Shown: one piece after another, positions 16,825 through 32,915 of the stretch
How the letters are laid out: every line of letters starts with the position of its first letter
How positions within the stretch are numbered: position 1 is the first letter of the stretch
Origin: Candidatus Woesearchaeota archaeon
GTDB lineage: Archaea > Nanobdellota > Nanobdellia > Pacearchaeales > GW2011-AR1
DNA length: 40,925 bases
Direction of reading: 5' to 3'
Assembly (NCBI GenBank): GCA_964653605.1
Contig: CAZZGW010000001.1
Location: 67,964-108,888 of the forward strand
The notes under the pieces: model-generated
Databases searched by the model: none
The model's input: the letters and a program-made list of their open reading frames with translations, nothing else
What the model was told of the DNA's origin: nothing
Made by a program: the position numbers and the translations under genes

Positions 16825-16959
16825 ATGAAAAAGTATTTACTTCTTATAGAGGATGAGAAACTTTGGGAAAAGTTTAAGAAAGTTATTAAAAAAGATATAA
16901 ATACTGAGATCATAGAGTTAATAAAAGATAAAATTGGAGTAAAAGATAAAAATGAATAA
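16825..16959 (+). CDS. 44-aa ribbon-helix-helix-like small protein (not in ORF track), first gene of the giant-protein operon
   Basis: My translation is MKKYLLLIEDEKLWEKFKKVIKKDINTEIIELIKDKIGVKDKNE. The pattern is a beta strand (KYLLLI), helix A, an N-T-E turn and helix B, as in CopG/Arc/MetJ proteins. The SD GGAG lies 7 nt upstream. Its stop lies 8 nt inside the next gene (ATGAATAA). Confidence 0.4.
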   Translation: MKKYLLLIEDEKLWEKFKKVIKKDINTEIIELIKDKIGVKDKNE

Positions 16960-18781
16960 GCGGGGCCAATTAACAATTTTCATTATAATTGCCATACTTG
17001 TTGTAGCAATGGTCGTAGGATTCTTTGTTTTTTGGGATAGGCCAGGGCCTTCAAAAGTTCCAAGAAATTTTGAGCCGGTATATAATACATTTCTTACTTG
17101 TATAGAGGAAAATCTCCAGCTTGGGGTGGATGCTCTTTCAGTCCAAGGAGGATATATTGAATTGCCAGAATTTGAACCTGGCTCTTTGGCATTTCCATTT
17201 TCTTCTCAGTTAAACTTCGTTGGAACTTCTATTCCCTATTGGGATTATATTTCTGGAGGGGGAATGCACAAAACACAAATTCCTACCGTAGAGGATATGG
17301 AAGGGGAGTTGGAGGAGTTTGTTATTTCTAGAATGGATTATTGTAATTTTGATAGTTATTATGCTTCTGAGATGACTTTGCTTTTTGGTGAGGGAACTCC
17401 TAAAGTTAAGATAAAAGATGGGGAGGTTGTTTTGGATTTGGATTTGGATTTTGTAGCATCTCTTGAAGGAGAAACTATCTCAGTAGAAAGGCACCATATA
17501 GCAATTGTAACAAAGCTTGGAAGTTTGTATGAGGATGCTTTGAAAGTTTATGAGTATGAGCAAGAGGAAATGTTTTTGGAAGATTATGGCCTAGATGTTC
17601 TGAACTTATACGCTCCGGTTGATGGGGTTGAGTTTACTTGTGCCCCAAAAGTTTGGGTTGCGGATAATGTATTTTATGATATTGAAGAGGCGCTTGAGAT
17701 AAACACAATGGCAATGAAAGTTGGAAATGAAAAGGAATATTTTGATGTGGAGATTGGCACAAATAACGATGTCCGCTTTATCAATTCTAGACATTGGCCT
17801 AGAAGTTTTGAAGTTAATCCTAGCGAGGATAATATTTTAAGAGCAGACCCTGTGGGGAACCAGCCTGGAATGGGTATTTTAGGATTTTGTTATGTAAGTT
17901 ACCATTTTGTTTATAATATGAATTATCCTGTTTTAGTTCAGGTTCATTCTGGAGATTCTAATGAAGTTTTCCAATTTCCTATGGCTGTTGTTATCCAAGG
18001 GAATAGAGCAAGAGAGCCTTTGGCTGGAGATGCTCTCGGATTAGAGAAGGGAATAGATTTATGTGCTGGAATGAATAGCCCCACGCTTATTTCTGTTTAT
18101 GGTAATGACGGGAATAGGGTGGAAGCAAATCTTTCTTATAATTGTTTAAATGATAAATGTTACCTTGGGGGAACTGGGGGAGGGATATTTGAAGGTAATT
18201 TACCTCAGTGTGTTAATGGATTTATTTTAGCTAAAGCAGAAGGGTATGAAGAAGGAAGCTTTATGTATTCTAGTGTGGAGAGGGGCCAAGTTAATCTTTT
18301 CTTAGATAAACTCTATACCTTGGATTTGAATTTATTTATGGAGGGCAAAAGATATAGTGATGAGGCAATAATTAATTTTGTTTCGGAGGATAAAGTTAAA
18401 GCTGTTTATTATCCTCAACAAAAGCAGGTTGAACTTAGCGAGGGAGATTATGAAGTTAGAGTTTATGTTTATGCAGATTCTCGTTTAGAATTCCCTGAAA
18501 TGACCTATGAGCAATGTTATGACGTTCCTAGAGGGCCAATACTAGGTTACTTTGGAGCTACAAGAGAAGAATGTGTTGATGTTGAATATCCCGAACAGGC
18601 ACTTACAAATGCCTTAGTTGCTGGAGGAGCAGAAGAGCATTCTATTTCAGAGGACCAATTAAAATCTTCAAATGTTTTGGAAATTAACTTTGAGAGATTC
18701 CCAAATCCAAAAACAATTTCTCAGCTACAAGAAAACTATATTTTATTTGATCAGACGGGGGTGGATATTAAACTTAAATGA
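16952..18781 (+). CDS. 609-aa exported protein with class III (type IV prepilin-like) signal peptide; function unknown
   Basis: The N-terminus is MNKRGQ followed by LTIFIIIAILVVAMVVGFFVF. This gives a basic residue, Gly, Gln at +1 and then a hydrophobic helix, the archaeal prepilin peptidase substrate pattern. The remainder is an acidic, Cys-containing extracellular region. A beta-sandwich-like stretch (ISVYGNDGNRVEANLSYN...GFILAKAEGYEEGSF) is present. Confidence 0.85.
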   Translation: MNKRGQLTIFIIIAILVVAMVVGFFVFWDRPGPSKVPRNFEPVYNTFLTCIEENLQLGVDALSVQGGYIELPEFEPGSLAFPFSSQLNFVGTSIPYWDYISGGGMHKTQIPTVEDMEGELEEFVISRMDYCNFDSYYASEMTLLFGEGTPKVKIKDGEVVLDLDLDFVASLEGETISVERHHIAIVTKLGSLYEDALKVYEYEQEEMFLEDYGLDVLNLYAPVDGVEFTCAPKVWVADNVFYDIEEALEINTMAMKVGNEKEYFDVEIGTNNDVRFINSRHWPRSFEVNPSEDNILRADPVGNQPGMGILGFCYVSYHFVYNMNYPVLVQVHSGDSNEVFQFPMAVVIQGNRAREPLAGDALGLEKGIDLCAGMNSPTLISVYGNDGNRVEANLSYNCLNDKCYLGGTGGGIFEGNLPQCVNGFILAKAEGYEEGSFMYSSVERGQVNLFLDKLYTLDLNLFMEGKRYSDEAIINFVSEDKVKAVYYPQQKQVELSEGDYEVRVYVYADSRLEFPEMTYEQCYDVPRGPILGYFGATREECVDVEYPEQALTNALVAGGAEEHSISEDQLKSSNVLEINFERFPNPKTISQLQENYILFDQTGVDIKLK

Positions 18782-21700
18782 ATAAAAATTTAAAATTAAT
18801 TTTTGTATTTGCATTTGTTTTCTTATTTGTAATCTCTTTTGGTAGTGCGTATACAAAGTCATACCCTGACATTATGCAATATGTTGCAACAGGGGGGGTG
18901 GGTGCTTTTGCGCAAAATAGTTTGGCTTTTGATAAATCAATGTGCGAGACTGGAACTGATTTTTTATTACAAATTGTCCCTTTTAGTTGTGAACCAAATC
19001 CTATTAGAAGTGATTTGCTGGAAGAAGAAGATGTTGCTGTTTATTGTCAGATTGCTGCAACCCAAATAAATCCCTTAATTGATGTTGAGACAATTAAATC
19101 AATGAAAATAGTTCCGGATAGGAGCTTTGGAGGGGGGGTTGTTAAGAATATTGCTTATTATCCTTCACAGGCTGCTTTAGGAAGGATTCCTAGTGGGGTT
19201 GTTAATAATCCTATGCTGGAAAACTTAGGTTATGTTGTTATTATTGTTGGAAAAAATGCAAATGAATCTGCAATGCCTGATTTTGTAGAAGGGAATTTGA
19301 CTGCCACATTAAGATATGATATTCAGGGGGCTTTTGGAATTGGTAAGTCTGAATTTTATCTGCCTGTTTTAAGTGATTCCGAATTTCAAGATAGATATTT
19401 GCAATATGGTTTTTGGGATGGAAGAGGATACCTAAGAGCAGAAGGAGTTGGAGATCATGAGGCAAGAATTTCTATTTATTCTGACGCAGAAGTAACTACC
19501 GGATTTCCTTCAAGATCTGAAGGAAGAGATTATAGTCAATTAAGATATTCTTCTTATACTGTTGAGAGGGGTAAAGAATCTCCTGAAATTTATTTGCCGG
19601 GATTGAGTCCTTGCATGGCAGGATTTAAATTGAGGTTGAATGATGTAGAAAATCCAGATACCACTGCTCGTTTAAGAGTCAATTCTGAGGTTGTTGAAGT
19701 TAAGCAGGGAGAGAAATTTTTAGAGGATAAATGTACTGTTTTGAGTGTTGAACATCAAGGATTGCACCAGTCTGCAGAGATTCGTTGCATTGATGATGAT
19801 GGAAGAGGATATACCTCTTTATTGAGTAGATCTCCAGGAGTGGAGTTAGAATTTGATAAGGATAAGGATGGTCACCTCGATAAATTAGAATTTCAACTGG
19901 GAGATAAGATTTATTCGGATAGGAATAAAGATGTTTTCTTAGGATACGTTGGAAGTTTTGATAATTCTCTAGCTGAAAAGGATATGTTTGTTGTTCTTTT
20001 TGCTGCCCCTTCCGAAAGAGGAATTGTAAAGTTAGATGATACTCAACTGAGGGCCGTTGCAAGGTTTGTTAAGCATAGAACTAAAGATTTGGGGACTGGG
20101 GCTGCTTTTGTGGATAATTTTGTAAATTCTCTTTCTGCTTTGTCTGCGGTTTCTGTAGAAGGAGTTACTTGGTTGGTTAAAGGAGAAGATTTTGAGATTC
20201 TTATTAAGCGTGGTGATGGAGAGAGATTTAAATCTAGAGAAATTGAATTAAATGGTTTCTCTTCTTCTGGAGGGAGTGATTATTTCTCTGCTTTGGATCT
20301 TAATTCAAATTCTAGAGGTTACTATGACAATGCTATTGAGGATTTTGAAACTGTTGAGGATTTCTACTCGGAAGTATCTGCTGCGGATGGTTCTTTTGAT
20401 TCTTTAGGAGAGCAAGCTCTTTATGAGGCTTTAGTGCTTGCTAGCAGGGTTGGAGAGACAGAAAATTTACTAACTTTTTGTGATGAGTTTATTGAGTATT
20501 ATCCTAATTCTTTGGTGATGCCGAGAGTAAATCTTCTTTGTTATGATGAATATACAATTTCAAATACGGGGGATAATATTTTTGAAGTTTTAATTAATGG
20601 AGACTTAAAAGAAATAAGTTTAGAAAGAGTAAGGAATCCAACCTATGAGCAGTACGGGGCTGAAATTTATATTAGAGGTCCTAATGGAAAAGTAGAGTTG
20701 GTTAAGCTTGGAAAAGATGAAATTTTCTTTTTAGATGGATTTAGAGGGCAAGTAGATTATGATTCTCAAGAAAACATTCCTGAAGATGAAGAAGAGGTTT
20801 CTTCTTTTGAAGATATAGAAACTCCTGGTTTGAAGTTGAAAATTAAAGATTCTAAGAATGTTATGTATAAATATTACAAGGGGGCTTGGTATATGAGGGT
20901 TTGGAGAAAAGGGTTGATACAAGATCACGATGACACAATTCCTGGGGAGAACTTTATAAAATTAGAAACTTTTGATTCTGGCCTCTCAAAAGTTAGTTTG
21001 GAGAATAGGGACAAGAGAATAATAGATGATCTTAAAGATAAAGATTATGCAGAAGGAATGAAGATGCTTGTGGATATTGTTCTTGGGGAAGATGGTGCGT
21101 CTTTAGGATTAGAAAGTTTTTCGGATATGACTCATCTTAAAAGTGATGGAAGATATGTGAATACCCAAGGAAATTCAAGGGATGTGGATTTTAGATTTGA
21201 TAAATCAACAGAAAAATGGTACTGGGGAAGTGATGCTAGTGTTCTTGGAAGAGCCTCCTGGATTGATGTTTCTGAATCTGGAGGAGATCAAGAAAAGTTC
21301 CTTAATGAGGATGGAGAAAAAAATAAAGCTACGGTTCTGAGAAATATGGGTCTTTATGAGGGAACTGCGTTTTTATTCTGGCATGATTCTTCTTACAACG
21401 AGAATACAGATGATAATTTCGATTATGATATAAGGGTTTCTGATACGGGAAAAATAGAACTTGGATTTAATCCAGAATCAATTGCTTTGGAAGATTTAGG
21501 AGATGATAGGGCAACTATTAATTTCCAAAGGGTTGAGAATTTTGTTGAGAGAAATTTTGTTACAGATAATAAACAGCTTACTTTGAATAAAGAAATTTCT
21601 ATTGGGGATTATTATGTAACTCTCAAGGATATTCATCTTGAAAAAGTTGCTAGGGTTACTGTTGTTCCAATGGTAAATAATCAATTCTCAAATTCTACTT

Positions 21701-24700
21701 TTCCCTATAGGGTTGCAATTGAAAAGAGAAAATTCCCTATGTCCGATGAAAGGATAAATGAAAAAATTGAGACGCTTGATGGGAGGATTGAGTGGCTGAA
21801 TACTACTGCAGAATACTTAGAAACAACAGTTGAAATAGGGAACAAGGTTTGTACAGGGGTTGGTCTTGGATTAACACTTAAGAATTTAATAAATAATATG
21901 AACGGGGGATCAATTGCAAGAACTTCTGTTATGCAAGGGAAAGGGGGATGGAATGAGGTCTGTCAGAAAGCGATGGCCGCAAAAGAACCAGAATATAGTT
22001 CCTTAGATGATTGTTTCTTGGAGCATTCTAAGGAAATAGACAATGATGTTAAAATGTACACAGATATTTTGAAAAGCCAAAATGATGCTCTGGCTCGTTG
22101 TGAGGGAGAAGTTAAAGGAGATGATGGAAACTTTGCAGAGAGATCTTATATAAATCAACAGCAATTGGTTGATTGTTATTTGGAGAATAGGATTAATGAT
22201 CCGAATAGTGGTTTGGGAGATACTTTAGATCAATTGGAAAGTAAAGGATATGTTGGACCAGATGGAAAATTCTATGCAAAGTTGGCAGAAGATGGTGTCA
22301 CTCCTTTGGGTGTGGGGGTGGATATCTCTGAAATTGATGAAGTTTTAAGTAAGAAAGTGGATGATGAAAATTATGCATTTAAGAAAAATGTATATTCCGT
22401 AGAACAATTAAAGGAAATTGAGTATTATAGTCTTGCACTTCAGGAAGATCCCGCTAATGATATGGCTAGGGAAAGATTGTACTCTTCTTTGACTGATTTG
22501 GAAAAGAATGCAAGGAACTTTAATCAAATTTCTGAAGTTGCTAATAGGGCAAACATTGATATTGATAAGGTAGGATATACTTATACTGGAGACTTAAAAC
22601 AACAAAGGGAAAATATCTATTTAGGATTAACAAAAGGAACTTATAACCAAGCGAGAAATATTCCAAATGTTGAAAATGGAGAGCCAATCTATGTTTCTGG
22701 GTCTAATCATGGAAGTTTTATGGTGGTTTTAGCAGACACCGAAGATAGTGGGGATGGAAGTAAAATGGCTGTAAAGAGAGATGATGATGGGCCTTTGATT
22801 TATGATTTAGAAGGAGAGAGAATATTTAGGCAAAAAGGAGATGATAATAATGAAGGGACAGCAATAATAAATGCAGTTGAAAACACAGTTTATGTAAAGA
22901 GAGATGCCGCTTCCTATAGAAATCCTTATACTAATCCTAGAGTTAAGTATTTTGATAACGAATTAACTGGAGGATATCCAGCGGTTGTTCCTGTGGATAC
23001 TGTTAATGGATGGTATGCTGCAACTAAATCAACTTTGCCTGTTGGAGGAAATATAGCCGCTTTTGATAAATCTGGAGTTGTTAGGAGCTTTTGGTTGTGT
23101 AATGTTGGAGAAAATGGGCTTGAAGAATATATTTCTGGAGATGATATTTGTAGCATGATTAATCTTGGAACAGGAGATGATTACACTGCTTTCCATAACT
23201 TGGATCCAAGTAAAGTTGAAAATTTAATTAGACAAGCAACAAGAAATATTGAAGAAGCTCAAAGCGCCAATAAGAATTCTAGAGGGTGGGTTACTATAGA
23301 TAGAAAGAGGTATCAAGTTGGTCAACCTCAAGCCGAAATTCCTTCAGTCCAATGCCAAGATTTAATGTCTCCTAAAGATTGTAGTTTAATGTATAACTTT
23401 TGTGATCCTTTTGTTTGTCCTAGTTCAAGATGTGATCTAGGAGGAAAGTATCCTGTAAGGGATGTTGTTCAATCTGGAATTTTTGGAGGGGTCGTTTTAT
23501 GTTACCCTAATGCTAAATGGCATGGAGGGGATGTTTATGTTCCGATTTGCGTTTCTGCAATAAGTGCGGGTGTAGATGGATGGTTACAAGTTAATAAAGG
23601 ATATAGAGATTGTTTGCAACACAATTTGGATACTGGAGAGACAGTTGGAATTTGTGACGAGATGCATAGTATTTACTTGTGTGATTTCTTTTACAGGCAG
23701 GCGAAACCTATTCTACAATTAGGAATTACTGAGCTTGGTTCTGCTTTATTAGGGCAAAATAGTCGTGGAGGTGGAGAATATATGACCTTTAAGAATGCTA
23801 TTAGTAATGCTGGAGATTCAATAGATTACTTTAAACAATATTACGCTGCAGAGGCATATAGGGCATTTAAACTTAGATCTGTGGATCAAATAAGTATTAA
23901 TGATCCTTGTGGGACTTTCCAGTCAGTAATTTTTCCAAATAGTGGAGAGGTTTTAGATTCATTAACTCAAGCCAGATCTCCTGTTCAGTTTACTGGTAAA
24001 TTTGAAGAAATGCAATTAACAACAATTACAAATCCTCCAACTTCGCACTATAAAGTTTATTATCAGATTTATGCTGGAAAAGATTCTGGGGCTTACTATC
24101 AAGTTTATTTGAGAGGAGGTAGTGGTAGCGATTATTATAGAGATACAACTTTTGATAGAATTGTTGATTCTGGACATATTGCTGCTGGGCAGAGTGTTTT
24201 TAATACAGAAGATTTCCAGGCACCTTCTGGCTACAAAGAGCTTTGTGTTGTTGTAAATGGCCAACAAGAATGTGGGTTCCAACAGGTTTCTACTTCCTTT
24301 GGAATTAACTATCTTAGTGATCTTTATATGAATCAACAAGCTAGCGAAACAGATATTAAAACAGAGAAAGAATGCATTTCTGGGTCTTCTAGTATGTATC
24401 AACTATTAAATCCTAATTTGCAGTCTGCTGCAGAAAATATTATTGATCCTGCCGTGTATAATAATGGATTATATAGAAAGTGTGCAACCCACGATCCTGG
24501 GGCTGGGGTGGATAGTAAAGCTGGAACAGAAGATGCACGTTGGGTGAAAGTAGGTTATTGTGGGGACACAAGTATTGGGTGTTGGATTGATACGGATAGT
24601 GTAAAGGATGTAATAAAACATTTGGGGTTAGAAGAAGATGCATTGAACAAAACTTCTGAGAATTTTCTTGATGAATTGTTTGAAGATGGAAACTATCTTA

Positions 24701-27700
24701 GCGATGATGAATTTAATGATGTTTTATTGAGTGTAGATGATGCTGAAGAGGGGGAAGCCAAACTTAGGATTTTAACAAATATCTTAGAAAGAATCTTTTG
24801 GAATAACCAAAAAGCAATTGTACATTTTAAGAGAGGAGAAGTTTTTGCAAGTATGGTAAATGCAGAGAAGTGCCCTTATTACTGTTGGGGGGAACAAAAG
24901 GGAGCCCAAGCAAACGAATATGTTGATGGAAAGTTGTATTATGGGATTTATAGGCCTAATTCAGATAAATGTTCTCGTAGTGATGAAATTGCAGAAGACT
25001 GTGAAAAAGGATGCCATGATCCAGATGGATATGGTCAGGGAGACCCTGCTATCTGTTTGAATGATGTTCCTCTTTCTGTAGAAGATGTTAAGGATTTAGA
25101 AAATAAAGATTCTTCTGAGTTTGAATTTAATTCTGGAGGAATAAATCCATTTAGAACTTATTGTTATGCGTTTGTTGCGGGAGAAGGATGGTTTTGGATT
25201 AATAAAAAATGTGGGTTCGCTGTTATTGGAGAAGAGGATTCTGAGTGGAAGAGTGTTGGAGAGGCTGGGGAGGCAAAAGGAGTTCACTATGATGTCACAT
25301 ATAGTTTGAATGGTAAGGGTTATTGGGGTGGTTTAGTTACTTTAATGAATGGTCTTAAAAGTGGGAAAACTGGAAGAAATGCAAAGATAACTGCAATGGA
25401 ATCTAAAACTGAAATTACGCATGGGTCAGTTGGTGATTCTGCTATTGTTACTTTCAAATTTGTAGCCCCTAAAGTTGCTGGAGAGAGGTTCTTTTCCAAT
25501 GAAGATAGTAATTTTTATTCTTCTTCTACAAATGGTTGGACTTACTTCTTTGGGCATAAAGAGCTTGATAATGGAAGAAGCTTTTATTCTGGAGTTGAAT
25601 GGGGAGAATTTGCTGCTGGAACTGGTTTGTCCCTACAATATTTTGATTTTGCTAATTGGTTTTTTACTAAGAACAATAAAGAAGGAATTTTAATTTTAAT
25701 TGGAGATTTGCCTGTTGACTATGAGGCATCTGAAATAGACATTAATGAGGAAGGAGTTAAAGATTATTGTAGTATATTAATGGGAGAATGTAAGAATTCT
25801 CTTGATTGTATGGGACCAATTTTTGAGAAAATTGTTACTCCTGATTGTGAAGACCTTGGAGAGATTTGTTGTGTTGATGGAGTTCCTCCCGGAATGGATG
25901 TTTTTGGTTATTGTGGGATGTTGGATGGAGAATGTTTGGGTTCTTCTGAGTGTGTAGGTCCTGTTTATGAAGGAATTGCTACTCCTGATTGTGAAGATGT
26001 TGGGGGTGTGTGTTGTGTTTCAATTGCAAGCATCCCCGGGGAAGACCCCGTGTCTGGGGAATGCAGTGATTGTAAATCAGGCTTCTGGGATATATGTGCT
26101 GAAGAGGAATGTTTAGAGATTGAACAGAAAACAGGAAGAGATTGCGTTTTTGCTAAGAATACTTTTGGTATTGGGGGTGTTTGTTCTGAAAAAGGGGAAG
26201 AGCCCCAAGAAGAGGTAGATGCTCCAACAGAGTGTAGTGATTGTAAAGATAATTATTTTGAAAAATGTACCCAAGAAGAATGCTCTGAAATTGGAATGCA
26301 GTTGAATAAAAATTGTGTTTATAAAAGAGCATTGGGGATATTTGGAAATTGTGTTGAGGAGGAGTTGAAAGTAATTGTTTGTCCAGAGGATTTAGATTCA
26401 GATGAGATTGAACCTGGAGATAAAGTTATTTGCGATGTTGTTCCGGCAGAAGAAGCTGAAGATGTTAGTGATAGTGCTAAATTTATTATCCCTTCTGGAA
26501 TTGATCCAGGAGAGATTGTTTGGTATGAAATCCCAGATGTTAGGGGAGACGAATATAATAGGGACGCTATAGTTTTTGAAATTCCAGACATTATTGAAGT
26601 CGGAACAGAAATAGAAGCAGAGATTGTAGAGATTGCAGAGGTTAAAGAATTTGAAGATGATTTTATTGGTTTGCCTTGCGGAGAGATGGGGGCTTTTGGG
26701 CAATGTATTTCTATTGATTCTGAAAGAGATCCTTTGGGGCTTAATTCTTGCGAGGGGAATGTTAGAAAGTTAGATTGTCCTGGGGGAAGTAATATTAGGT
26801 GTTGCATTCTAGATAGTCAGTTTGTTGGAGATCCTTGCGGTTTGGATGGAACTTGTCTAGATAGAAATTTTCTAGGAACTTCTTGTGATGGAGATTGGCA
26901 AACTGGTCTTTGTGGGGGGACAAGTGCTATTCAATGTTGTGTTCCAGAATCTCTTCCTCCTGATCCAAATCCTGATGAGAATTTAGAAAAAAAGATAGTT
27001 TGTAATGATTTTAGTGATGGGGACGGATGGACTTTAGAAAGAGGATGCGATATAAAAGTTCCTGATGCTAACGATCTTGAAAATAAAATCATTTGTCCTG
27101 TTCCGCCTGTAAGAGTTTACGAACAGATTAATTGTAAAGTCCCAGATGAAAGTGAAGAAAAACCTTTTTGGTGTAATATAATTGGAAGTTCAAATAATCC
27201 TAGTGAAGCAGATTGTTATGTCCATGGAGGGGAGAATTTAGGCCCTACCACAAACGTGAGAGTTTTGGAAGAAGTAGAACAACAGGATGGAGAAATTGTG
27301 CCTGGAACAACTTTTGCAACATATGAAGAAGGGGGAGTTCTTGCTAAGAAAAATGCTCACTGTGCCACTGCTATATATAATCTCCTTGGAGAAGCAGGGT
27401 GTGGAACTTCAGGAGCTGTTTATGGGGTTCCTAGTGGAGATAATTTTAATATTTATAGGGGAAGTATTCTTTCTGTTCTAGTAGGTTCTGGAGATGGTTG
27501 GAGGTGCACAACATCTGCTAGAAGTTCTAATAAAGTTTATGGGGTTGTTTTAAATGAATTGGTTCCCGGACAGTATTTAGATGTTGTCTTTGACACTAAT
27601 AATGCAGGGGAAACAATATGCCACACACTTATTTTTATGGGCTGGGAAGATAGAGATAATTATAGGGCAGTAATTTTTGACTGGATAGGCGGCAACTTAA

Positions 27701-27861
27701 ATTTGGGCACTGGGGGATGTACTTCTGATGATGCAGAAGGAGGGGTTTGTCATACGTATGGCTATGAAATAGTTAGTTTAAGAGAAAGTGCCATCTCCGG
27801 AGAAACTAATTATCCTATATACAGAGTTATGAGGCCCGTTGTTGATGATCAATTTACTTAG
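18778..27861 (+). CDS. giant secreted cysteine-rich protein (3027 aa), unknown function, C-terminal putative papain-fold hydrolase domain
   Basis: A 9084-nt open frame without interruption in an AT-rich genome cannot plausibly be chance. It has a Sec-type signal peptide (MNKNLKLIFVFAFVFLFVISFGSA/YT) and I see no later TM segment. The start overlaps the upstream stop (ATGA). Internal Cys-rich repeats and a C-terminal Cys/His/Asp pattern are described in the findings. Confidence 0.9.
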   Translation: MNKNLKLIFVFAFVFLFVISFGSAYTKSYPDIMQYVATGGVGAFAQNSLAFDKSMCETGTDFLLQIVPFSCEPNPIRSDLLEEEDVAVYCQIAATQINPLIDVETIKSMKIVPDRSFGGGVVKNIAYYPSQAALGRIPSGVVNNPMLENLGYVVIIVGKNANESAMPDFVEGNLTATLRYDIQGAFGIGKSEFYLPVLSDSEFQDRYLQYGFWDGRGYLRAEGVGDHEARISIYSDAEVTTGFPSRSEGRDYSQLRYSSYTVERGKESPEIYLPGLSPCMAGFKLRLNDVENPDTTARLRVNSEVVEVKQGEKFLEDKCTVLSVEHQGLHQSAEIRCIDDDGRGYTSLLSRSPGVELEFDKDKDGHLDKLEFQLGDKIYSDRNKDVFLGYVGSFDNSLAEKDMFVVLFAAPSERGIVKLDDTQLRAVARFVKHRTKDLGTGAAFVDNFVNSLSALSAVSVEGVTWLVKGEDFEILIKRGDGERFKSREIELNGFSSSGGSDYFSALDLNSNSRGYYDNAIEDFETVEDFYSEVSAADGSFDSLGEQALYEALVLASRVGETENLLTFCDEFIEYYPNSLVMPRVNLLCYDEYTISNTGDNIFEVLINGDLKEISLERVRNPTYEQYGAEIYIRGPNGKVELVKLGKDEIFFLDGFRGQVDYDSQENIPEDEEEVSSFEDIETPGLKLKIKDSKNVMYKYYKGAWYMRVWRKGLIQDHDDTIPGENFIKLETFDSGLSKVSLENRDKRIIDDLKDKDYAEGMKMLVDIVLGEDGASLGLESFSDMTHLKSDGRYVNTQGNSRDVDFRFDKSTEKWYWGSDASVLGRASWIDVSESGGDQEKFLNEDGEKNKATVLRNMGLYEGTAFLFWHDSSYNENTDDNFDYDIRVSDTGKIELGFNPESIALEDLGDDRATINFQRVENFVERNFVTDNKQLTLNKEISIGDYYVTLKDIHLEKVARVTVVPMVNNQFSNSTFPYRVAIEKRKFPMSDERINEKIETLDGRIEWLNTTAEYLETTVEIGNKVCTGVGLGLTLKNLINNMNGGSIARTSVMQGKGGWNEVCQKAMAAKEPEYSSLDDCFLEHSKEIDNDVKMYTDILKSQNDALARCEGEVKGDDGNFAERSYINQQQLVDCYLENRINDPNSGLGDTLDQLESKGYVGPDGKFYAKLAEDGVTPLGVGVDISEIDEVLSKKVDDENYAFKKNVYSVEQLKEIEYYSLALQEDPANDMARERLYSSLTDLEKNARNFNQISEVANRANIDIDKVGYTYTGDLKQQRENIYLGLTKGTYNQARNIPNVENGEPIYVSGSNHGSFMVVLADTEDSGDGSKMAVKRDDDGPLIYDLEGERIFRQKGDDNNEGTAIINAVENTVYVKRDAASYRNPYTNPRVKYFDNELTGGYPAVVPVDTVNGWYAATKSTLPVGGNIAAFDKSGVVRSFWLCNVGENGLEEYISGDDICSMINLGTGDDYTAFHNLDPSKVENLIRQATRNIEEAQSANKNSRGWVTIDRKRYQVGQPQAEIPSVQCQDLMSPKDCSLMYNFCDPFVCPSSRCDLGGKYPVRDVVQSGIFGGVVLCYPNAKWHGGDVYVPICVSAISAGVDGWLQVNKGYRDCLQHNLDTGETVGICDEMHSIYLCDFFYRQAKPILQLGITELGSALLGQNSRGGGEYMTFKNAISNAGDSIDYFKQYYAAEAYRAFKLRSVDQISINDPCGTFQSVIFPNSGEVLDSLTQARSPVQFTGKFEEMQLTTITNPPTSHYKVYYQIYAGKDSGAYYQVYLRGGSGSDYYRDTTFDRIVDSGHIAAGQSVFNTEDFQAPSGYKELCVVVNGQQECGFQQVSTSFGINYLSDLYMNQQASETDIKTEKECISGSSSMYQLLNPNLQSAAENIIDPAVYNNGLYRKCATHDPGAGVDSKAGTEDARWVKVGYCGDTSIGCWIDTDSVKDVIKHLGLEEDALNKTSENFLDELFEDGNYLSDDEFNDVLLSVDDAEEGEAKLRILTNILERIFWNNQKAIVHFKRGEVFASMVNAEKCPYYCWGEQKGAQANEYVDGKLYYGIYRPNSDKCSRSDEIAEDCEKGCHDPDGYGQGDPAICLNDVPLSVEDVKDLENKDSSEFEFNSGGINPFRTYCYAFVAGEGWFWINKKCGFAVIGEEDSEWKSVGEAGEAKGVHYDVTYSLNGKGYWGGLVTLMNGLKSGKTGRNAKITAMESKTEITHGSVGDSAIVTFKFVAPKVAGERFFSNEDSNFYSSSTNGWTYFFGHKELDNGRSFYSGVEWGEFAAGTGLSLQYFDFANWFFTKNNKEGILILIGDLPVDYEASEIDINEEGVKDYCSILMGECKNSLDCMGPIFEKIVTPDCEDLGEICCVDGVPPGMDVFGYCGMLDGECLGSSECVGPVYEGIATPDCEDVGGVCCVSIASIPGEDPVSGECSDCKSGFWDICAEEECLEIEQKTGRDCVFAKNTFGIGGVCSEKGEEPQEEVDAPTECSDCKDNYFEKCTQEECSEIGMQLNKNCVYKRALGIFGNCVEEELKVIVCPEDLDSDEIEPGDKVICDVVPAEEAEDVSDSAKFIIPSGIDPGEIVWYEIPDVRGDEYNRDAIVFEIPDIIEVGTEIEAEIVEIAEVKEFEDDFIGLPCGEMGAFGQCISIDSERDPLGLNSCEGNVRKLDCPGGSNIRCCILDSQFVGDPCGLDGTCLDRNFLGTSCDGDWQTGLCGGTSAIQCCVPESLPPDPNPDENLEKKIVCNDFSDGDGWTLERGCDIKVPDANDLENKIICPVPPVRVYEQINCKVPDESEEKPFWCNIIGSSNNPSEADCYVHGGENLGPTTNVRVLEEVEQQDGEIVPGTTFATYEEGGVLAKKNAHCATAIYNLLGEAGCGTSGAVYGVPSGDNFNIYRGSILSVLVGSGDGWRCTTSARSSNKVYGVVLNELVPGQYLDVVFDTNNAGETICHTLIFMGWEDRDNYRAVIFDWIGGNLNLGTGGCTSDDAEGGVCHTYGYEIVSLRESAISGETNYPIYRVMRPVVDDQFT
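25765..26019 (+). repeat. tandem duplicated 6-Cys module, pair 1 (within the giant CDS)
   Basis: YCSILMGECKNSLDCMGPIFEKIVTPDCEDLGEICCV aligns with YCGMLDGECLGSSECVGPVYEGIATPDCEDVGGVCCV (aa 2330-2414). Confidence 0.85.
26056..26364 (+). repeat. tandem duplicated 6-Cys module, pair 2 (within the giant CDS)
   Basis: GECSDCKSGFWDICAEEECLEIEQKTGRDCVFAKNTFGIGGVCSEKGEE aligns with TECSDCKDNYFEKCTQEECSEIGMQLNKNCVYKRALGIFGNCVEEE (aa 2427-2529). Confidence 0.85.
26671..26943 (+). repeat. tandem duplicated 6-Cys module, pair 3 (within the giant CDS)
   Basis: LPCGEMGAFGQCISIDSERDPLGLNSCEGNVRKLDCPGGSNIRCCI aligns with DPCGLDGTCLDRNFLGTSCDGDWQTGLCGGTSAIQCCV (aa 2632-2722). Confidence 0.8.
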
Positions 27862-27867
27862 CTAGAA

Positions 27868-28287
27868 TTATTTAATTCTGACGGAATCTCCGAGTTCTAG
27901 GCTTGAAATATCAAGGCCAGGGTTTAGACGAAATATGTGTCCTTCTTTTTTTCCTGTATTATAATATAAGTTTCCTAATCTTTTGAGTATATTTTCCATG
28001 TAAGCTGTATCTAGAGGGTTTATTGTGTGGTAGACTGTGTCTTTTTCTTTCATTCTTTGCGATGTTTCTTCCGAGCTCATTTTATATTTTATAACAAGTT
28101 TTCTTAACCTTTCCATTTTCATTTCTTCTTTTTCTTCAGGGTCTAATTCTCTCTTTATTGTGTCTTGGAATACTACTTTCTCAATAGTGTTTTTAACGGG
28201 GAAGTTAGTGTTTTCAATAGAATCATAATTTGGAGTACCCATGCTGGTTGCTGTTGCTAAAAGTAGTGGGATTAAGATTTTTTTCAT
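27868..28287 (-). CDS. small secreted protein (139 aa) with weak LysM-like C-terminus
   Basis: The signal peptide is MKKILIPLLLATATSMG. The C-terminus VYHTINPLDTAYMENILKRLG...IFRLNPGLDISSLELGDSVRIK loosely follows the LysM pattern (Y.V..GDT...IA......L..LN.L....L..GQ.L.IP). Its start abuts the stop of the upstream lipoprotein gene. Confidence 0.6.
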   Translation of the reverse strand: MKKILIPLLLATATSMGTPNYDSIENTNFPVKNTIEKVVFQDTIKRELDPEEKEEMKMERLRKLVIKYKMSSEETSQRMKEKDTVYHTINPLDTAYMENILKRLGNLYYNTGKKEGHIFRLNPGLDISSLELGDSVRIK

Positions 28288-29319
28288 TTATTTTAAACCG
28301 GCATCTATTTCTTGCTGGAGCATTTTTTCAAGATATGCTTTTCTTACTTTTATAGAATCCATTTGTCTTTCGTGTTCTGCGTCTAAAAGCATTCTTTTTT
28401 CCATTTCTTCTCTATATCTCATATAATCTGTTATATCTTGAGGCATTTCTGACTGTGTTGGTTGTACAGAAGTGGAATCGGCAGGTTGTGTTGGTTGTTC
28501 TGTTTCTTTTTTTCCAAAACATCCACAGTCTTCTGCATCTGTTTGGTTTTCTTCTATAATTGGTCTGAAAAAACCTTTATCATTAGCAATTATTAGTGTT
28601 TTCTTACCCTGGTCTACAGTACCTTTGGTGTTATCTGTTATTGGAATAAATACTTCTGGTAAAGAACCTTCTGGAGTGTACATTGTTACTTGTTCTAAAA
28701 CTCCAACTCCTTTAGAATTTTCTTTCCTTACAAAATAGTTTGCTTTTTCTCCATCAAAGTATAAATAATCACAACCTTCTATTTCTACTCTTGGAATTTT
28801 TTTCTTAAAACTTCCACTATTAAAATTAAAAGCATGTCCGAAAGCTTTTTTATCCCCATTTCTTTTAGCTTTTCTTAATTCTCTTGTTACTTTTGCCTTT
28901 ACTCTTCTATCAGTTATTTCTACAGCTGCTATTGATTGTCCTTTTTTAACTAGTTCTGTAGGAACATATTTTTGTCCTTCTAAGGTTGATTCTCCGGTGT
29001 TCGTATCTACTGCTTCCCAGATTCTTGCTTCTTCAAAAGGGGTCATTGTGAAGGGTAATTCTCCTCCATCCTGGTCAGTGTTTTTTACCATAAAATATTC
29101 TCTTTGTTTTCTTTTGCTTCCTTCGAATAAAACTTGCCCTTCTAATTGGTATTTGTTTTTCGTTTCACTTTGAGAATAATGATTTCCTTTAATAGATCCT
29201 TCTATATATGATCCTTTAGAATTATCTGCTTTGTTGTCAGAATTACAAGAAGTTAATGTAGGGGCTAAAGTTGCTCCTAGTAACATTGCTGTAAGTCCTA
29301 ATCTTTTTATTGTTTTCAT
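28288..29319 (-). CDS. putative lipoprotein (343 aa), unknown function
   Basis: The signal peptide carries a lipobox: MKTIKRLGLTAMLLGATLAPTLTS-C. A P/T/Q-rich linker (ETEQPTQPADSTSVQPTQSEMPQ) and a C-terminal charged helix follow. Confidence 0.7.
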   Translation of the reverse strand: MKTIKRLGLTAMLLGATLAPTLTSCNSDNKADNSKGSYIEGSIKGNHYSQSETKNKYQLEGQVLFEGSKRKQREYFMVKNTDQDGGELPFTMTPFEEARIWEAVDTNTGESTLEGQKYVPTELVKKGQSIAAVEITDRRVKAKVTRELRKAKRNGDKKAFGHAFNFNSGSFKKKIPRVEIEGCDYLYFDGEKANYFVRKENSKGVGVLEQVTMYTPEGSLPEVFIPITDNTKGTVDQGKKTLIIANDKGFFRPIIEENQTDAEDCGCFGKKETEQPTQPADSTSVQPTQSEMPQDITDYMRYREEMEKRMLLDAEHERQMDSIKVRKAYLEKMLQQEIDAGLK

Positions 29320-32056: not shown

Positions 32057-32915
32057 ATGAGAAAACACCATAGGATAATTTTAGGGGGATTTAGTACGAT
32101 AGTTGTAGCATTCATGGTTATAACAGGAATCTTGCTTAATGGTTTAATTGTTAAACAGCAAATTAATCATAATGAAGTTGTTGATAAAATAGATACTTTG
32201 CAGATTGATACCCAGAGTAAATTAAATGAGTTAACAGAGAATCTTATGGAAACTATGGGGGATGTTGATACTCTAAATGGCAAGGTGGGTGTGATTAATC
32301 AGGAATTTGAATTGTTAAAAGACTCTACTGGTGGAGATTTTTCAGAGGTTATAGAGAATTCTATCCCTTCGGTGGTTACTATAAAAACAGATATTAGTCA
32401 GGGAACGGGTTTTGTTATTTCCAGTGATGGTTTCATAATAACTAATGCGCATATTTTGTCGGGGGGGGAAAAGAGTTGAAACTTGGAATTATGAACAACT
32501 TGTCTTTAGGACATCCTTTGTAGGGTATGATAGCGAGTTAGATTTAGCATTATTAAAGATTATTGGGGTTTTTGATCCTTTAGAATTTACTGATTCAAAT
32601 CCTGTTCATGTGGGAGAAGAAGTAATTGCTATTGGAAATCCGCTTGGGTTGCAATATAGTGTCTCTCAGGGAATTGTTTCTGGCGTCCATAGGAAAGGGC
32701 CAAATGGGTTGAATATTTATATTCAAACAGATGCAGCGTTAAATCCGGGTAATTCTGGAGGGCCTTTGATTAATACTAATGGAGATGTTATAGGAATAAA
32801 TAATTTTAAGAGTTCTTCTGGGGAGAGTTTAGGTTTTGCTTTGGAGTCTAATTCCATAAAAGAAGCTGTAAATCAAATTGCGCAAAATGAATTAAATATA
32901 ACTATTTTGAGTTAA
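32057..32915 (+). pseudogene. HtrA/DegP-like trypsin-fold serine protease (no PDZ domain) interrupted by a +1 frameshift at a G8 tract
   Basis: ORF 32057-32479 carries a TM segment, a coiled coil and the His box (GTGFVISSDGFIITNAHIL). ORF 32445-32915 carries the Asp box (DLALLKI) and Ser box (GNSGGPLIN). The two frames switch at GGGGGGGG (32461-32468). Deleting one G fuses them as ...NAHILSGGKRVETW... Confidence 0.8.

Follow-up and report, generated by a model that had tools for sequence, protein, structure and literature searches.

What kind of domain closes the 3027-residue protein encoded by a 9084-nt open reading frame (ORF) at 18778..27861 (+ strand) of a 40,925-nucleotide stretch of DNA, hereafter the window, from Candidatus Woesearchaeota archaeon, a tiny symbiont of the DPANN group, and what might it do? 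Working from the letters and the translated ORFs, a first-pass annotation had proposed that the C-terminal end forms a papain-fold hydrolase of the NlpC/P60 or CHAP kind with a Cys-His-Asp triad. Following up this proposal computationally, we find that its Cys and His are invariant across a sequence family carried by related giant proteins, and that the fold is very probably that of papain-like Cys-His hydrolases. Cleavage of bacterial peptidoglycan is the function that we favour, with less assurance.

Pacearchaeota and Woesearchaeota are abundant, uncultivated archaea with reduced genomes. What chiefly suggests, from their genomes, that some of them attack bacteria is the GH23 lytic transglycosylase domain carried by giant proteins (PMC8204110, PMC9723730), and genomes without this domain have been read as lacking the capacity for such attack (PMC11537232). 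For these proteins of up to 3000 residues, described as 'murein-like lytic transglycosylase' and specific to the two lineages, binding or degradation of bacterial walls has been proposed (PMC8204110, PMC9723730, PMC11537232). Among them, fam00969 comprises giant Pacearchaeota/Woesearchaeota proteins annotated as murein lytic transglycosylase (PMC8204110). Judged by its sequence, the window protein is a clear homologue of this family over a core of ~2000 residues.

Residues and distribution of the Cys-His domain

Translation of the ORF places all three proposed residues in the codons and contexts first described: Cys2862 (TGT, 27361..27363), the proposed nucleophile, within KKNAHCATAIY; His2949 (CAC, 27622..27624), the proposed general base, on a beta strand within ETICHTLIFMGW; and Asp2968 (GAC, 27679..27681), the candidate third residue, in the FDW motif of AVIFDWIGG, each on the + strand and each located by translation, alignments and structural model. 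Local hidden Markov models (HMMs) delimit the surrounding domain to residues 2827-3021 (27256..27840, +), for which structure prediction and Foldseek point to a divergent CHAP/NlpC-P60-like fold. Word-index homologue searches with the 206-aa domain alone, or with a 40-sequence alignment of the family, returned no match, and exhaustive phmmer with the window domain retrieved only 6 proteins, all of them giant proteins or fragments thereof. Because the word index evidently misses so short and divergent a domain, the family was recovered through a full-length search with the giant protein followed by local HMM iterations.

The full-length search yielded 334 homologues of 1900-3060 residues, a few of them labelled 'Candidatus Pacearchaeota archaeon' or 'uncultured archaeon'. 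Domain counts were drawn from the best 120 of the 334 (bit scores >1180), or from 123 proteins once three further ones had been added. The residue pattern around Cys, His and Asp is not a product of chance: with the C-terminal 207 residues as query, BLASTP and three local HMM rounds detected a domain of ~170-200 residues in 66 of the 120 homologues, and in 69 of the 123 after the addition. In 30 of the 66 carriers the domain stands at the C-terminus, and in the other 36 it is internal. The proteins P0043 and L201 hold two copies each.

In the resulting 67-copy family alignment, the Cys column is occupied by Cys in 66/66 copies and the His column by His in 67/67, bearing out the proposal for its two central residues. 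A MAFFT alignment of 40 members leaves seven invariant columns, C2862, G2931, H2949, F2953, W2956, A2964 and W2969. None of the other Cys and His residues of the window domain (H2861, C2875, C2910, C2948, C2981, C2991 and H2992) is conserved in the family. The next-best Cys column, 2880, is Cys in 53/64 copies and Ala in the window; the lack of an invariant Cys partner for C2862 argues against a purely structural disulfide role. Asp occupies the third column in 60/67 copies, the others having Gly (five), His (one) or Ser (one).

A degenerate DNA pattern for H-x2-I-F-x2-W-x7-A-x2-F-D-W was scanned across 185,579 species-representative genomes. It found 36 stretches, where by our own estimate ~1 match would be expected by chance, and all lie in metagenome-assembled genomes (MAGs) of Pacearchaeota, Woesearchaeota or Nanoarchaeota/Nanoarchaeia. 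The motif matches the window once, at 27622-27684, and 0 of 100 shuffles. The same scan of IMG/VR gave no match, and tblastn with a consensus-like member found none in 50,697 phage records. By the exact-motif scan, the family thus appears limited to Pace-, Woese- and Nanoarchaeota.

The motif loci provided a second set, from the Genome Taxonomy Database (GTDB), of 41 domain copies. Cys, which lies outside the search pattern, is present in 39 of them, and His likewise in 39 of the copies covering its column, with the same two exceptions. Both exceptions (L179, CAYQJI010000001.1; L185, JAAZNJ010000004.1) are the first of three tandem Cys-His domain copies in Woesearchaeota giant genes; there, Cys is replaced by Ala and His by Asn together, with the fold-defining IF..W..A..W residues kept. 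This first copy is likely a pseudo-enzyme or binding copy, to judge from the alignment, and the joint loss of Cys and His in a redundant copy is as expected of a catalytic dyad.

Predicted fold and its relatives

We modelled the last 206 residues of the window protein with AlphaFold2 (AF2) and the 40-sequence alignment (model residue i corresponds to residue 2821+i), as well as the domain of a near-consensus member, P0018. The window model reached a mean predicted local distance difference test score (pLDDT) of 85 and a predicted template modelling score (pTM) of 0.84, the P0018 model a pLDDT of 94.5 and a pTM of 0.90. The elements follow in identical order in both models: N-terminal helix, Cys helix, insert, 'PGD' strand, His strand, Asp strand and two further strands. 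C2862 (model residue 41) opens the helix 41-51, just as C29 of P0018 opens the helix 29-39, and His and then Asp sit on consecutive hairpin strands, the His strand following the 'GD' strand. The secondary structure of both models is hence congruent with the first description of a Cys opening a helix and of His and Asp in successive strands. The 'PGD-like' strand of the window, P2930-G2931-Q-Y-L-D-V-V-F (27565..27591, +), was placed through alignments and aligns with the GDL strand of MepS in hhalign. The Cys-His spacing of 87 residues, which had been flagged as a concern for its length, is real; it is explained by a family-specific insert of ~45 residues that separates the Cys helix from the 'PGD' strand (residues ~2875-2920; 27400..27537, +), in which DSSP assigns strands at model residues 54-62, 68-72 and 76-80 together with a loop of low pLDDT.

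Foldseek comparison of the window model with the BFVD library placed phage CHAP-type proteins at five of the six best positions (two named as CHAP-domain proteins, one as a lysin, and two unnamed with the same scores), and an NlpC/P60 endopeptidase at rank 8, with E 1.7e-3 to 8e-2, probabilities of 0.87-1.00 and template modelling (TM) scores of ~0.4. In the PDB, chymotrypsin-like viral proteases emerged for the window model and were rejected, given TM scores of 0.12-0.19 and an unfitting His-Asp-Cys order. For the P0018 model, NlpC/P60 and CHAP hydrolases head the PDB matches. The full-length top matches have probabilities of 0.75-0.94, led by MepS (8xud/8xup; E 0.016, probability 0.94) and including 7v6s-u, PlyPy, PlyGRCS (0.92), Spr (2k1g), LysGH15-CHAP, LysIME-EF1 and CHAPK. 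Every P0018 match longer than ~170 columns belongs to the NlpC/P60-CHAP superfamily, bar the C39 domain of PCAT1 and a few with probabilities <0.3; the remaining matches span 60-110 columns and pair the sheet with KOW/SH3-like barrels. A confident match to a non-enzymatic fold did not appear in Foldseek.

Weak sequence signals lead in the same direction. Scanned singly against Pfam, the 40 members give sub-threshold matches to NLPC_P60 in four (best E 0.042) and to DUF1287 in two, with singletons that include Amidase_6 (E 0.0034) and CHAP (E 0.026); we take these four families to be members of one papain-like clan. The family consensus gives a single match to NLPC_P60 (E 0.024) that starts shortly ahead of the Cys and ends shortly behind the His: its residues 29-122 pair with positions 11-73 of the 105-position profile, at 15 bits where the cut-off is 23. 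Scans of the 40 members against NCBIfam and PHROGs gave scattered, non-significant matches (phrog_329 'minor tail protein' in 5/40, p60/Iap, LnsA, SseI), suggestive of the same clan. The gathering thresholds of PF00877 and PF05257 are not reached by the Cys-His domain, and no Pfam or NCBIfam model covers its family.

In hhalign against E. coli MepS (query sequence 100% identical to E. coli), the PGD strand and His of the family fall on TGDLVLF...GRHVGIY, the His aligning with the catalytic His145 of the precursor (His119 of the mature protein), an alignment that is weak on its own; indeed, the 40-member alignment against single LysK or MepS sequences is too weak for use alone. A CHAP reference profile was built from 14 sequences at IMG/VR loci found via LysK. 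Against it, the 67-sequence family alignment is collinear and sets Cys, His and Asp on LysK C54, H117 and E134, with a score of 18.1 (P 0.03); column-shuffled CHAP profiles score 12.5 +/- 2.5, with 2/100 reaching 18.1. A diverse NlpC/P60 reference profile was also attempted, but all relatives found by the genome scan were 84% identical or closer.

Measured against the NlpC/P60 endopeptidases (E. coli MepS/Spr, 8xud, 8xup, 2k1g; PF00877), which are top full-length PDB matches at probabilities of 0.77-0.94, the domain likewise has its Cys opening a helix and its His on the strand after the 'GD' strand. It departs from them in the ~45-residue insert after the Cys helix and in the absence of the N-terminal 'YvwGG' motif. 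Moreover, its candidate third residue is an Asp at His+19, where NlpC/P60 enzymes have a His 12 residues after, and it is Cys-rich, archaeal, lineage-restricted and predicted to be extracellular. The CHAP endolysins (LysK CHAPK 4csh, LysGH15 4olk, PlyGRCS 8xyf, PlyPy 5udm; PF05257) match at probabilities of 0.98-1.0 in BFVD and 0.47-0.92 in the PDB. They are close in their His-to-acid spacing (19 here, 17 there) and share a [DE]..WNG motif, with GH-x18-FDWNG in the family against GH-x16-EQNWNG in LysK and 24 residues from GH to WNG in both, despite a sequence identity of just 11-14%. The His/Asp hairpin of the AF2 models is presumably longer than that of CHAPK.

The fold assignment from the models is thus consistent while the individual matches are not significant; as each homology signal is sub-threshold, we make the call at the level of fold and superfamily rather than family membership. 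We regard a papain-like Cys-His hydrolase fold as highly probable, congruent with the original NlpC/P60-CHAP reading. Sequence and models taken together, the domain would form a new and very divergent family within the NlpC/P60-CHAP superfamily and belong to neither of the two Pfam families.

Proposed function and its alternatives

We consider it probable that the domain is a lineage-restricted, divergent papain-like cysteine hydrolase module of the NlpC/P60-CHAP type that cuts peptidoglycan stem peptides. Peptidoglycan is favoured as the target because the structural neighbours are MepS and CHAP lysins, and because of the modules that reside on the homologues. In their tails, Pfam recognises SLT, VanY, M23, YkuD, trypsin, ankyrin or LRR modules. 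With local HMMs over the 123 giant proteins, the SLT-like module is found in 33, the Cys-His domain in 69 and both in 12; in P0012, P0037 and P0122, the Cys-His domain lies directly downstream of the SLT-like module. The wall hydrolases in this variable tail fit the earlier suggestion of an effector against a partner cell's envelope. The arrangement of these three proteins also resembles PrgK of pCF10, a bifunctional cell-wall hydrolase with SLT and CHAP domains (PMC11323569), in its glycosidase-plus-peptidase logic. PrgK-type proteins are, however, small, bacterial and built of canonical Pfam domains, whereas here the carrier is a 2000-residue archaeal one and the window copy carries the peptidase-like module alone.

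What we infer of catalysis, substrate and biological role is as follows. The giant protein would be exported, its conserved core of ~2000 residues serving as a long carrier, and its variable tail would present binding modules and a distal cysteine hydrolase. The nucleophile would be Cys2862 at the helix N-terminus and the general base His2949, whose strand faces it; the His would be oriented by Asp2968 or by another residue close by in the FDW(N)G strand. C2862, activated by H2949, would attack an amide bond, for which the stem peptides of bacterial peptidoglycan are the likeliest site. Cleavage would help the archaeon to break through a bacterial partner's wall or to reshape it, whether the domain acts by itself or in concert with the lytic transglycosylase, M23, VanY and YkuD modules that occupy the same position in homologues.

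Several observations weigh against this reading. In Foldseek, the window model has noise-level PDB matches only (best E 0.04), and neither model yields a match with E <= 0.001, TM scores being 0.35-0.48 with high root-mean-square deviations. The Pfam matches of the family all lie under the gathering cut-offs, and the window domain itself has none. With the last 206 residues as query, phmmer found nothing among PDB sequences, and a PDB sequence match of ETV6 to the FIxWxDK segment (E about 0.8) was rejected as spurious. The substrate is deduced solely from the domains that accompany this one in homologues; in the window protein itself, a Pfam scan recognises no peptidoglycan module, and neither Pfam SLT nor an SLT HMM built from the homologues matches it. 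The window copy further differs from the consensus at SD2883-4 (GV), K2924V, D2932Q, N2970I and H3012Y, and may accordingly have altered specificity or reduced activity; within the insert, a C-x-YSD-x2-GK-x-Y motif that is conserved in other members is degenerate in it.

The third residue belongs to the same side of the balance. DSSP assigns the hairpin strands of the window model to residues 125-137 and 142-154, a register that would place D2968 opposite F2953 and H2949 opposite ~2972. D2968 would then be ~4 residues off the position opposite His and, on this register, out of reach of a direct hydrogen bond; nearer to H2949 would be position 2970, which is Asn in 41/67 copies and Ile in the window. 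In addition, Gly replaces D2968 in six 'FGW[KRQ]' variants, of which five come from the family alignment and one from the GTDB set, and all of which retain Cys and His. Of the triad first proposed, the Cys and His thus stand, being invariant and lost only jointly in a duplicated copy, while D2968 is a putative member.

Next, we weighed a Cys-His enzyme that acts on something other than peptidoglycan, namely a pseudomurein or S-layer isopeptide, a transglutaminase cross-link, a lipid in LRAT-like acyl transfer, or a small molecule as an amidase. The NlpC/P60-CHAP superfamily is generally known to include amidases and acyltransferases, and the weak single NCBIfam matches to LnsA and SseI concern papain-like enzymes that do not act on peptidoglycan. 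The residues lost from the window copy and the missing peptidoglycan-specific partner domain would suit this possibility too, as would the fact that the known hosts of cultivated DPANN are archaea. We nevertheless regard it as unlikely, as no Pei-like or transglutaminase structure is among the Foldseek top 50 and as the SLT, M23, VanY and YkuD modules of the homologues, along with the adjoining LysM proteins, all target bacterial peptidoglycan. The pseudomurein variant had been raised from the outset by analogy with PeiW and PeiP, which use Cys-His-Asp chemistry in a papain/transglutaminase-like fold; nothing specific speaks for it, no PeiW/PeiP-like match having appeared in the PDB sequence searches or in the Foldseek top 50 (whether the library holds a Pei structure is not known), and the context here is bacterial peptidoglycan, not pseudomurein.

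Quite improbable, in our judgement, is a papain-fold protease working in cis or on its own system, which by analogy with the LapG-type proteases of giant adhesins or with C39 leader peptidases would process or release the giant protein, or mature the 609-residue pilin-like protein encoded upstream. The same Cys/His conservation and fold evidence would serve such a protease. The PCAT1 C39 peptidase domain is among the weaker Foldseek matches (probability 0.60), the domain occurs in most family members and sometimes internally, as for a housekeeping processing domain, and the upstream partner gene is conserved. However, ~44% of the homologues do without the domain and bear peptidoglycan hydrolases instead, pointing to an exchangeable module and not to an obligatory maturation device; in structure, the domain comes closest to peptidoglycan hydrolases rather than to processing proteases; and tandem copies (L179, L185, P0043) are typical of lytic or binding modules. 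The autoprocessing variant of the first-pass annotation likewise found nothing specific in its support.

Finally, a non-catalytic binding domain or pseudo-enzyme, at least in the window copy, with the invariant Cys and His serving as disulfide or metal ligands, would accommodate the sub-threshold homology, the disulfides expected of a Cys-rich extracellular family, the pseudo-enzyme copies within it and the consensus residues missing from the window, yet is very improbable, since the invariant Cys has no invariant partner (Ala at column 2880 in the window), Cys and His are lost jointly and not singly, and a Cys at a helix N-terminus facing a His on the sheet finds its best fold matches in active Cys-His hydrolases.

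For the peptidoglycan hydrolase that we favour, the principle of a large surface protein bearing a cysteine wall hydrolase of the CHAP/NlpC-P60 type is already known, and the carrier family has been described. In size, lineage and predicted extracellular location, the window protein matches the fam00969 giants (Castelle et al. 2021, PMC8204110; PMC9723730); unlike their annotation, it has no SLT/GH23 domain. The papers on the giant family (PMC8204110, PMC9723730, PMC11537232) make no mention of an NlpC/P60- or CHAP-like domain, and a literature search joining DPANN, NlpC and peptidoglycan found no paper. New are the domain family itself, its restriction, by motif scan, to one DPANN lineage, and its greater frequency than SLT among the sampled homologues. 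The same carriers hence bear a second, unannotated catalytic-looking module that is commoner than SLT (69 against 33 of the 123 sampled), and it also occurs on carriers without any recognisable peptidoglycan domain, such as the window protein. For annotation, this supplies a new sequence family and a usable lineage-specific motif, H-x2-IF-x2-W-x7-A-x2-FDW. As a domain of ~180-200 residues that is predicted to fold well and could be expressed, it offers a handle on the envelope polymer that is cut, and thereby on the hosts.

A bolder extension, which we hold to be doubtful, is that the Cys-His domain and not the lytic transglycosylase constitutes the main lineage-defining 'warhead' of a Pace-/Woesearchaeota host-attack apparatus made up of the giant protein, the pilin-like partner and a LysM-like lipoprotein, perhaps with a specificity unseen in bacterial or phage NlpC/P60 and CHAP enzymes, for example for a bond in a particular bacterial or archaeal envelope. 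If true, it would provide a direct molecular marker of parasitism by archaea on bacteria across domains, and a testable handle on it.

The giant carrier and its genomic neighbourhood

The N-terminus of the giant protein, MNKNLKLIFVFAFVFLFVISFGSAY (18778..18852, +), reads as a signal-peptide-like segment, from which export of the 3027-residue protein appears plausible. BLASTP coverage by 119 homologues divides the protein into a conserved core in two parts, residues 1-650 (18778..20727, +; 100-119 of 119 homologues) and 900-2030 (21475..24867, +; 104-119 of 119), separated by a variable insert at residues 650-900, and a variable C-terminal 'cargo' region (residues 2031-3027; 24868..27858, +). 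Coverage falls to ~74/119 at residues 2001-2050, and over the last ~1000 residues just 1-14 of the 119 align. By Pfam, neither the last 206 residues nor the entire protein has a significant match.

Upstream of the Cys-His domain, the tail holds three tandem pairs of Cys-rich modules (residues 2329-2415, 2426-2529 and 2631-2724; 25762..26949, +), seen in the sequence and lacking a Pfam match, which are probably disulfide-bonded spacer or binding modules. Their recurring patterns, one for each pair, read C..L.GEC...S.C.GP..E...TPDCED.G..CC, ECSDCK...C..EEC.EI...C and G.PCG..G.C...C.G...C.GG..I.CC. Within the core, residues ~1500-1640 (~23275-23700, +) form a strongly conserved Cys-rich stretch, also found in P0122, with hydrophobic segments such as VVQSGIFGGVVLCYP and VYVPICVSAISAGVDGWL; it could be a membrane-interacting element. 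A further core segment, DKDKDGHLDKLE (residues 358-373; 19849-19896, +), matches the 12-residue consensus of an EF-hand Ca-binding loop, where the Pfam matches to EF-hand_5 and EF-hand_1 stay under threshold (E 0.06-0.09).

Directly upstream lies a gene for a 609-residue protein (16952..18781, +), which overlaps the giant gene by 4 nt and has no Pfam match. It occupies the same position in L009 (57% identity) and in L010 and L011 (49% identity), and its N-terminus, MNKRGQ/LTIFIIIAILVV, resembles an archaeal class III (type IV pilin-like) signal peptide. Given the conserved pairing, the 609-residue and giant proteins may be partners. In L010 and L011, the giant gene is followed downstream by a gene for a 335-residue LysM-domain protein. 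At this place, the window has two lipoprotein-like ORFs on the - strand, of 139 residues (27868-28287) and 343 residues (28288-29319), neither with a Pfam match at 1e-3. The shorter resembles the C-terminal part of the 335-residue protein and the longer its N-terminal part (blastp E 2.5e-5 and 1.6e-6, respectively), so that the window may hold a split or diverged version of the LysM neighbour.

The wider surroundings comprise SRP54, FtsY, GatD, ProRS, a phosphoglycerate mutase, a DHH phosphoesterase and four tRNAs, with ribosomal protein S3Ae just upstream in the syntenic loci. The closest homologue, P0002, is encoded in a Woesearchaeota MAG (L009) with matching gene order. A mobile-element or viral origin was rejected in view of these housekeeping neighbours, the synteny with the Woesearchaeota MAG and the absence of a match in phage records or IMG/VR. 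Across 18001-28000, where the giant gene lies, the GC skew is +0.32 to +0.38 and the G+C content 0.35-0.39, against a window average of ~0.32; as other + strand genes also show a positive skew, this probably represents coding-strand purine bias and not foreign origin. In L009, a gene for a 286-residue trypsin-like protease (17797-18657) stands between the amino-acid permease and ProRS genes, a position that in the window is taken by two small ORFs (32057-32915).

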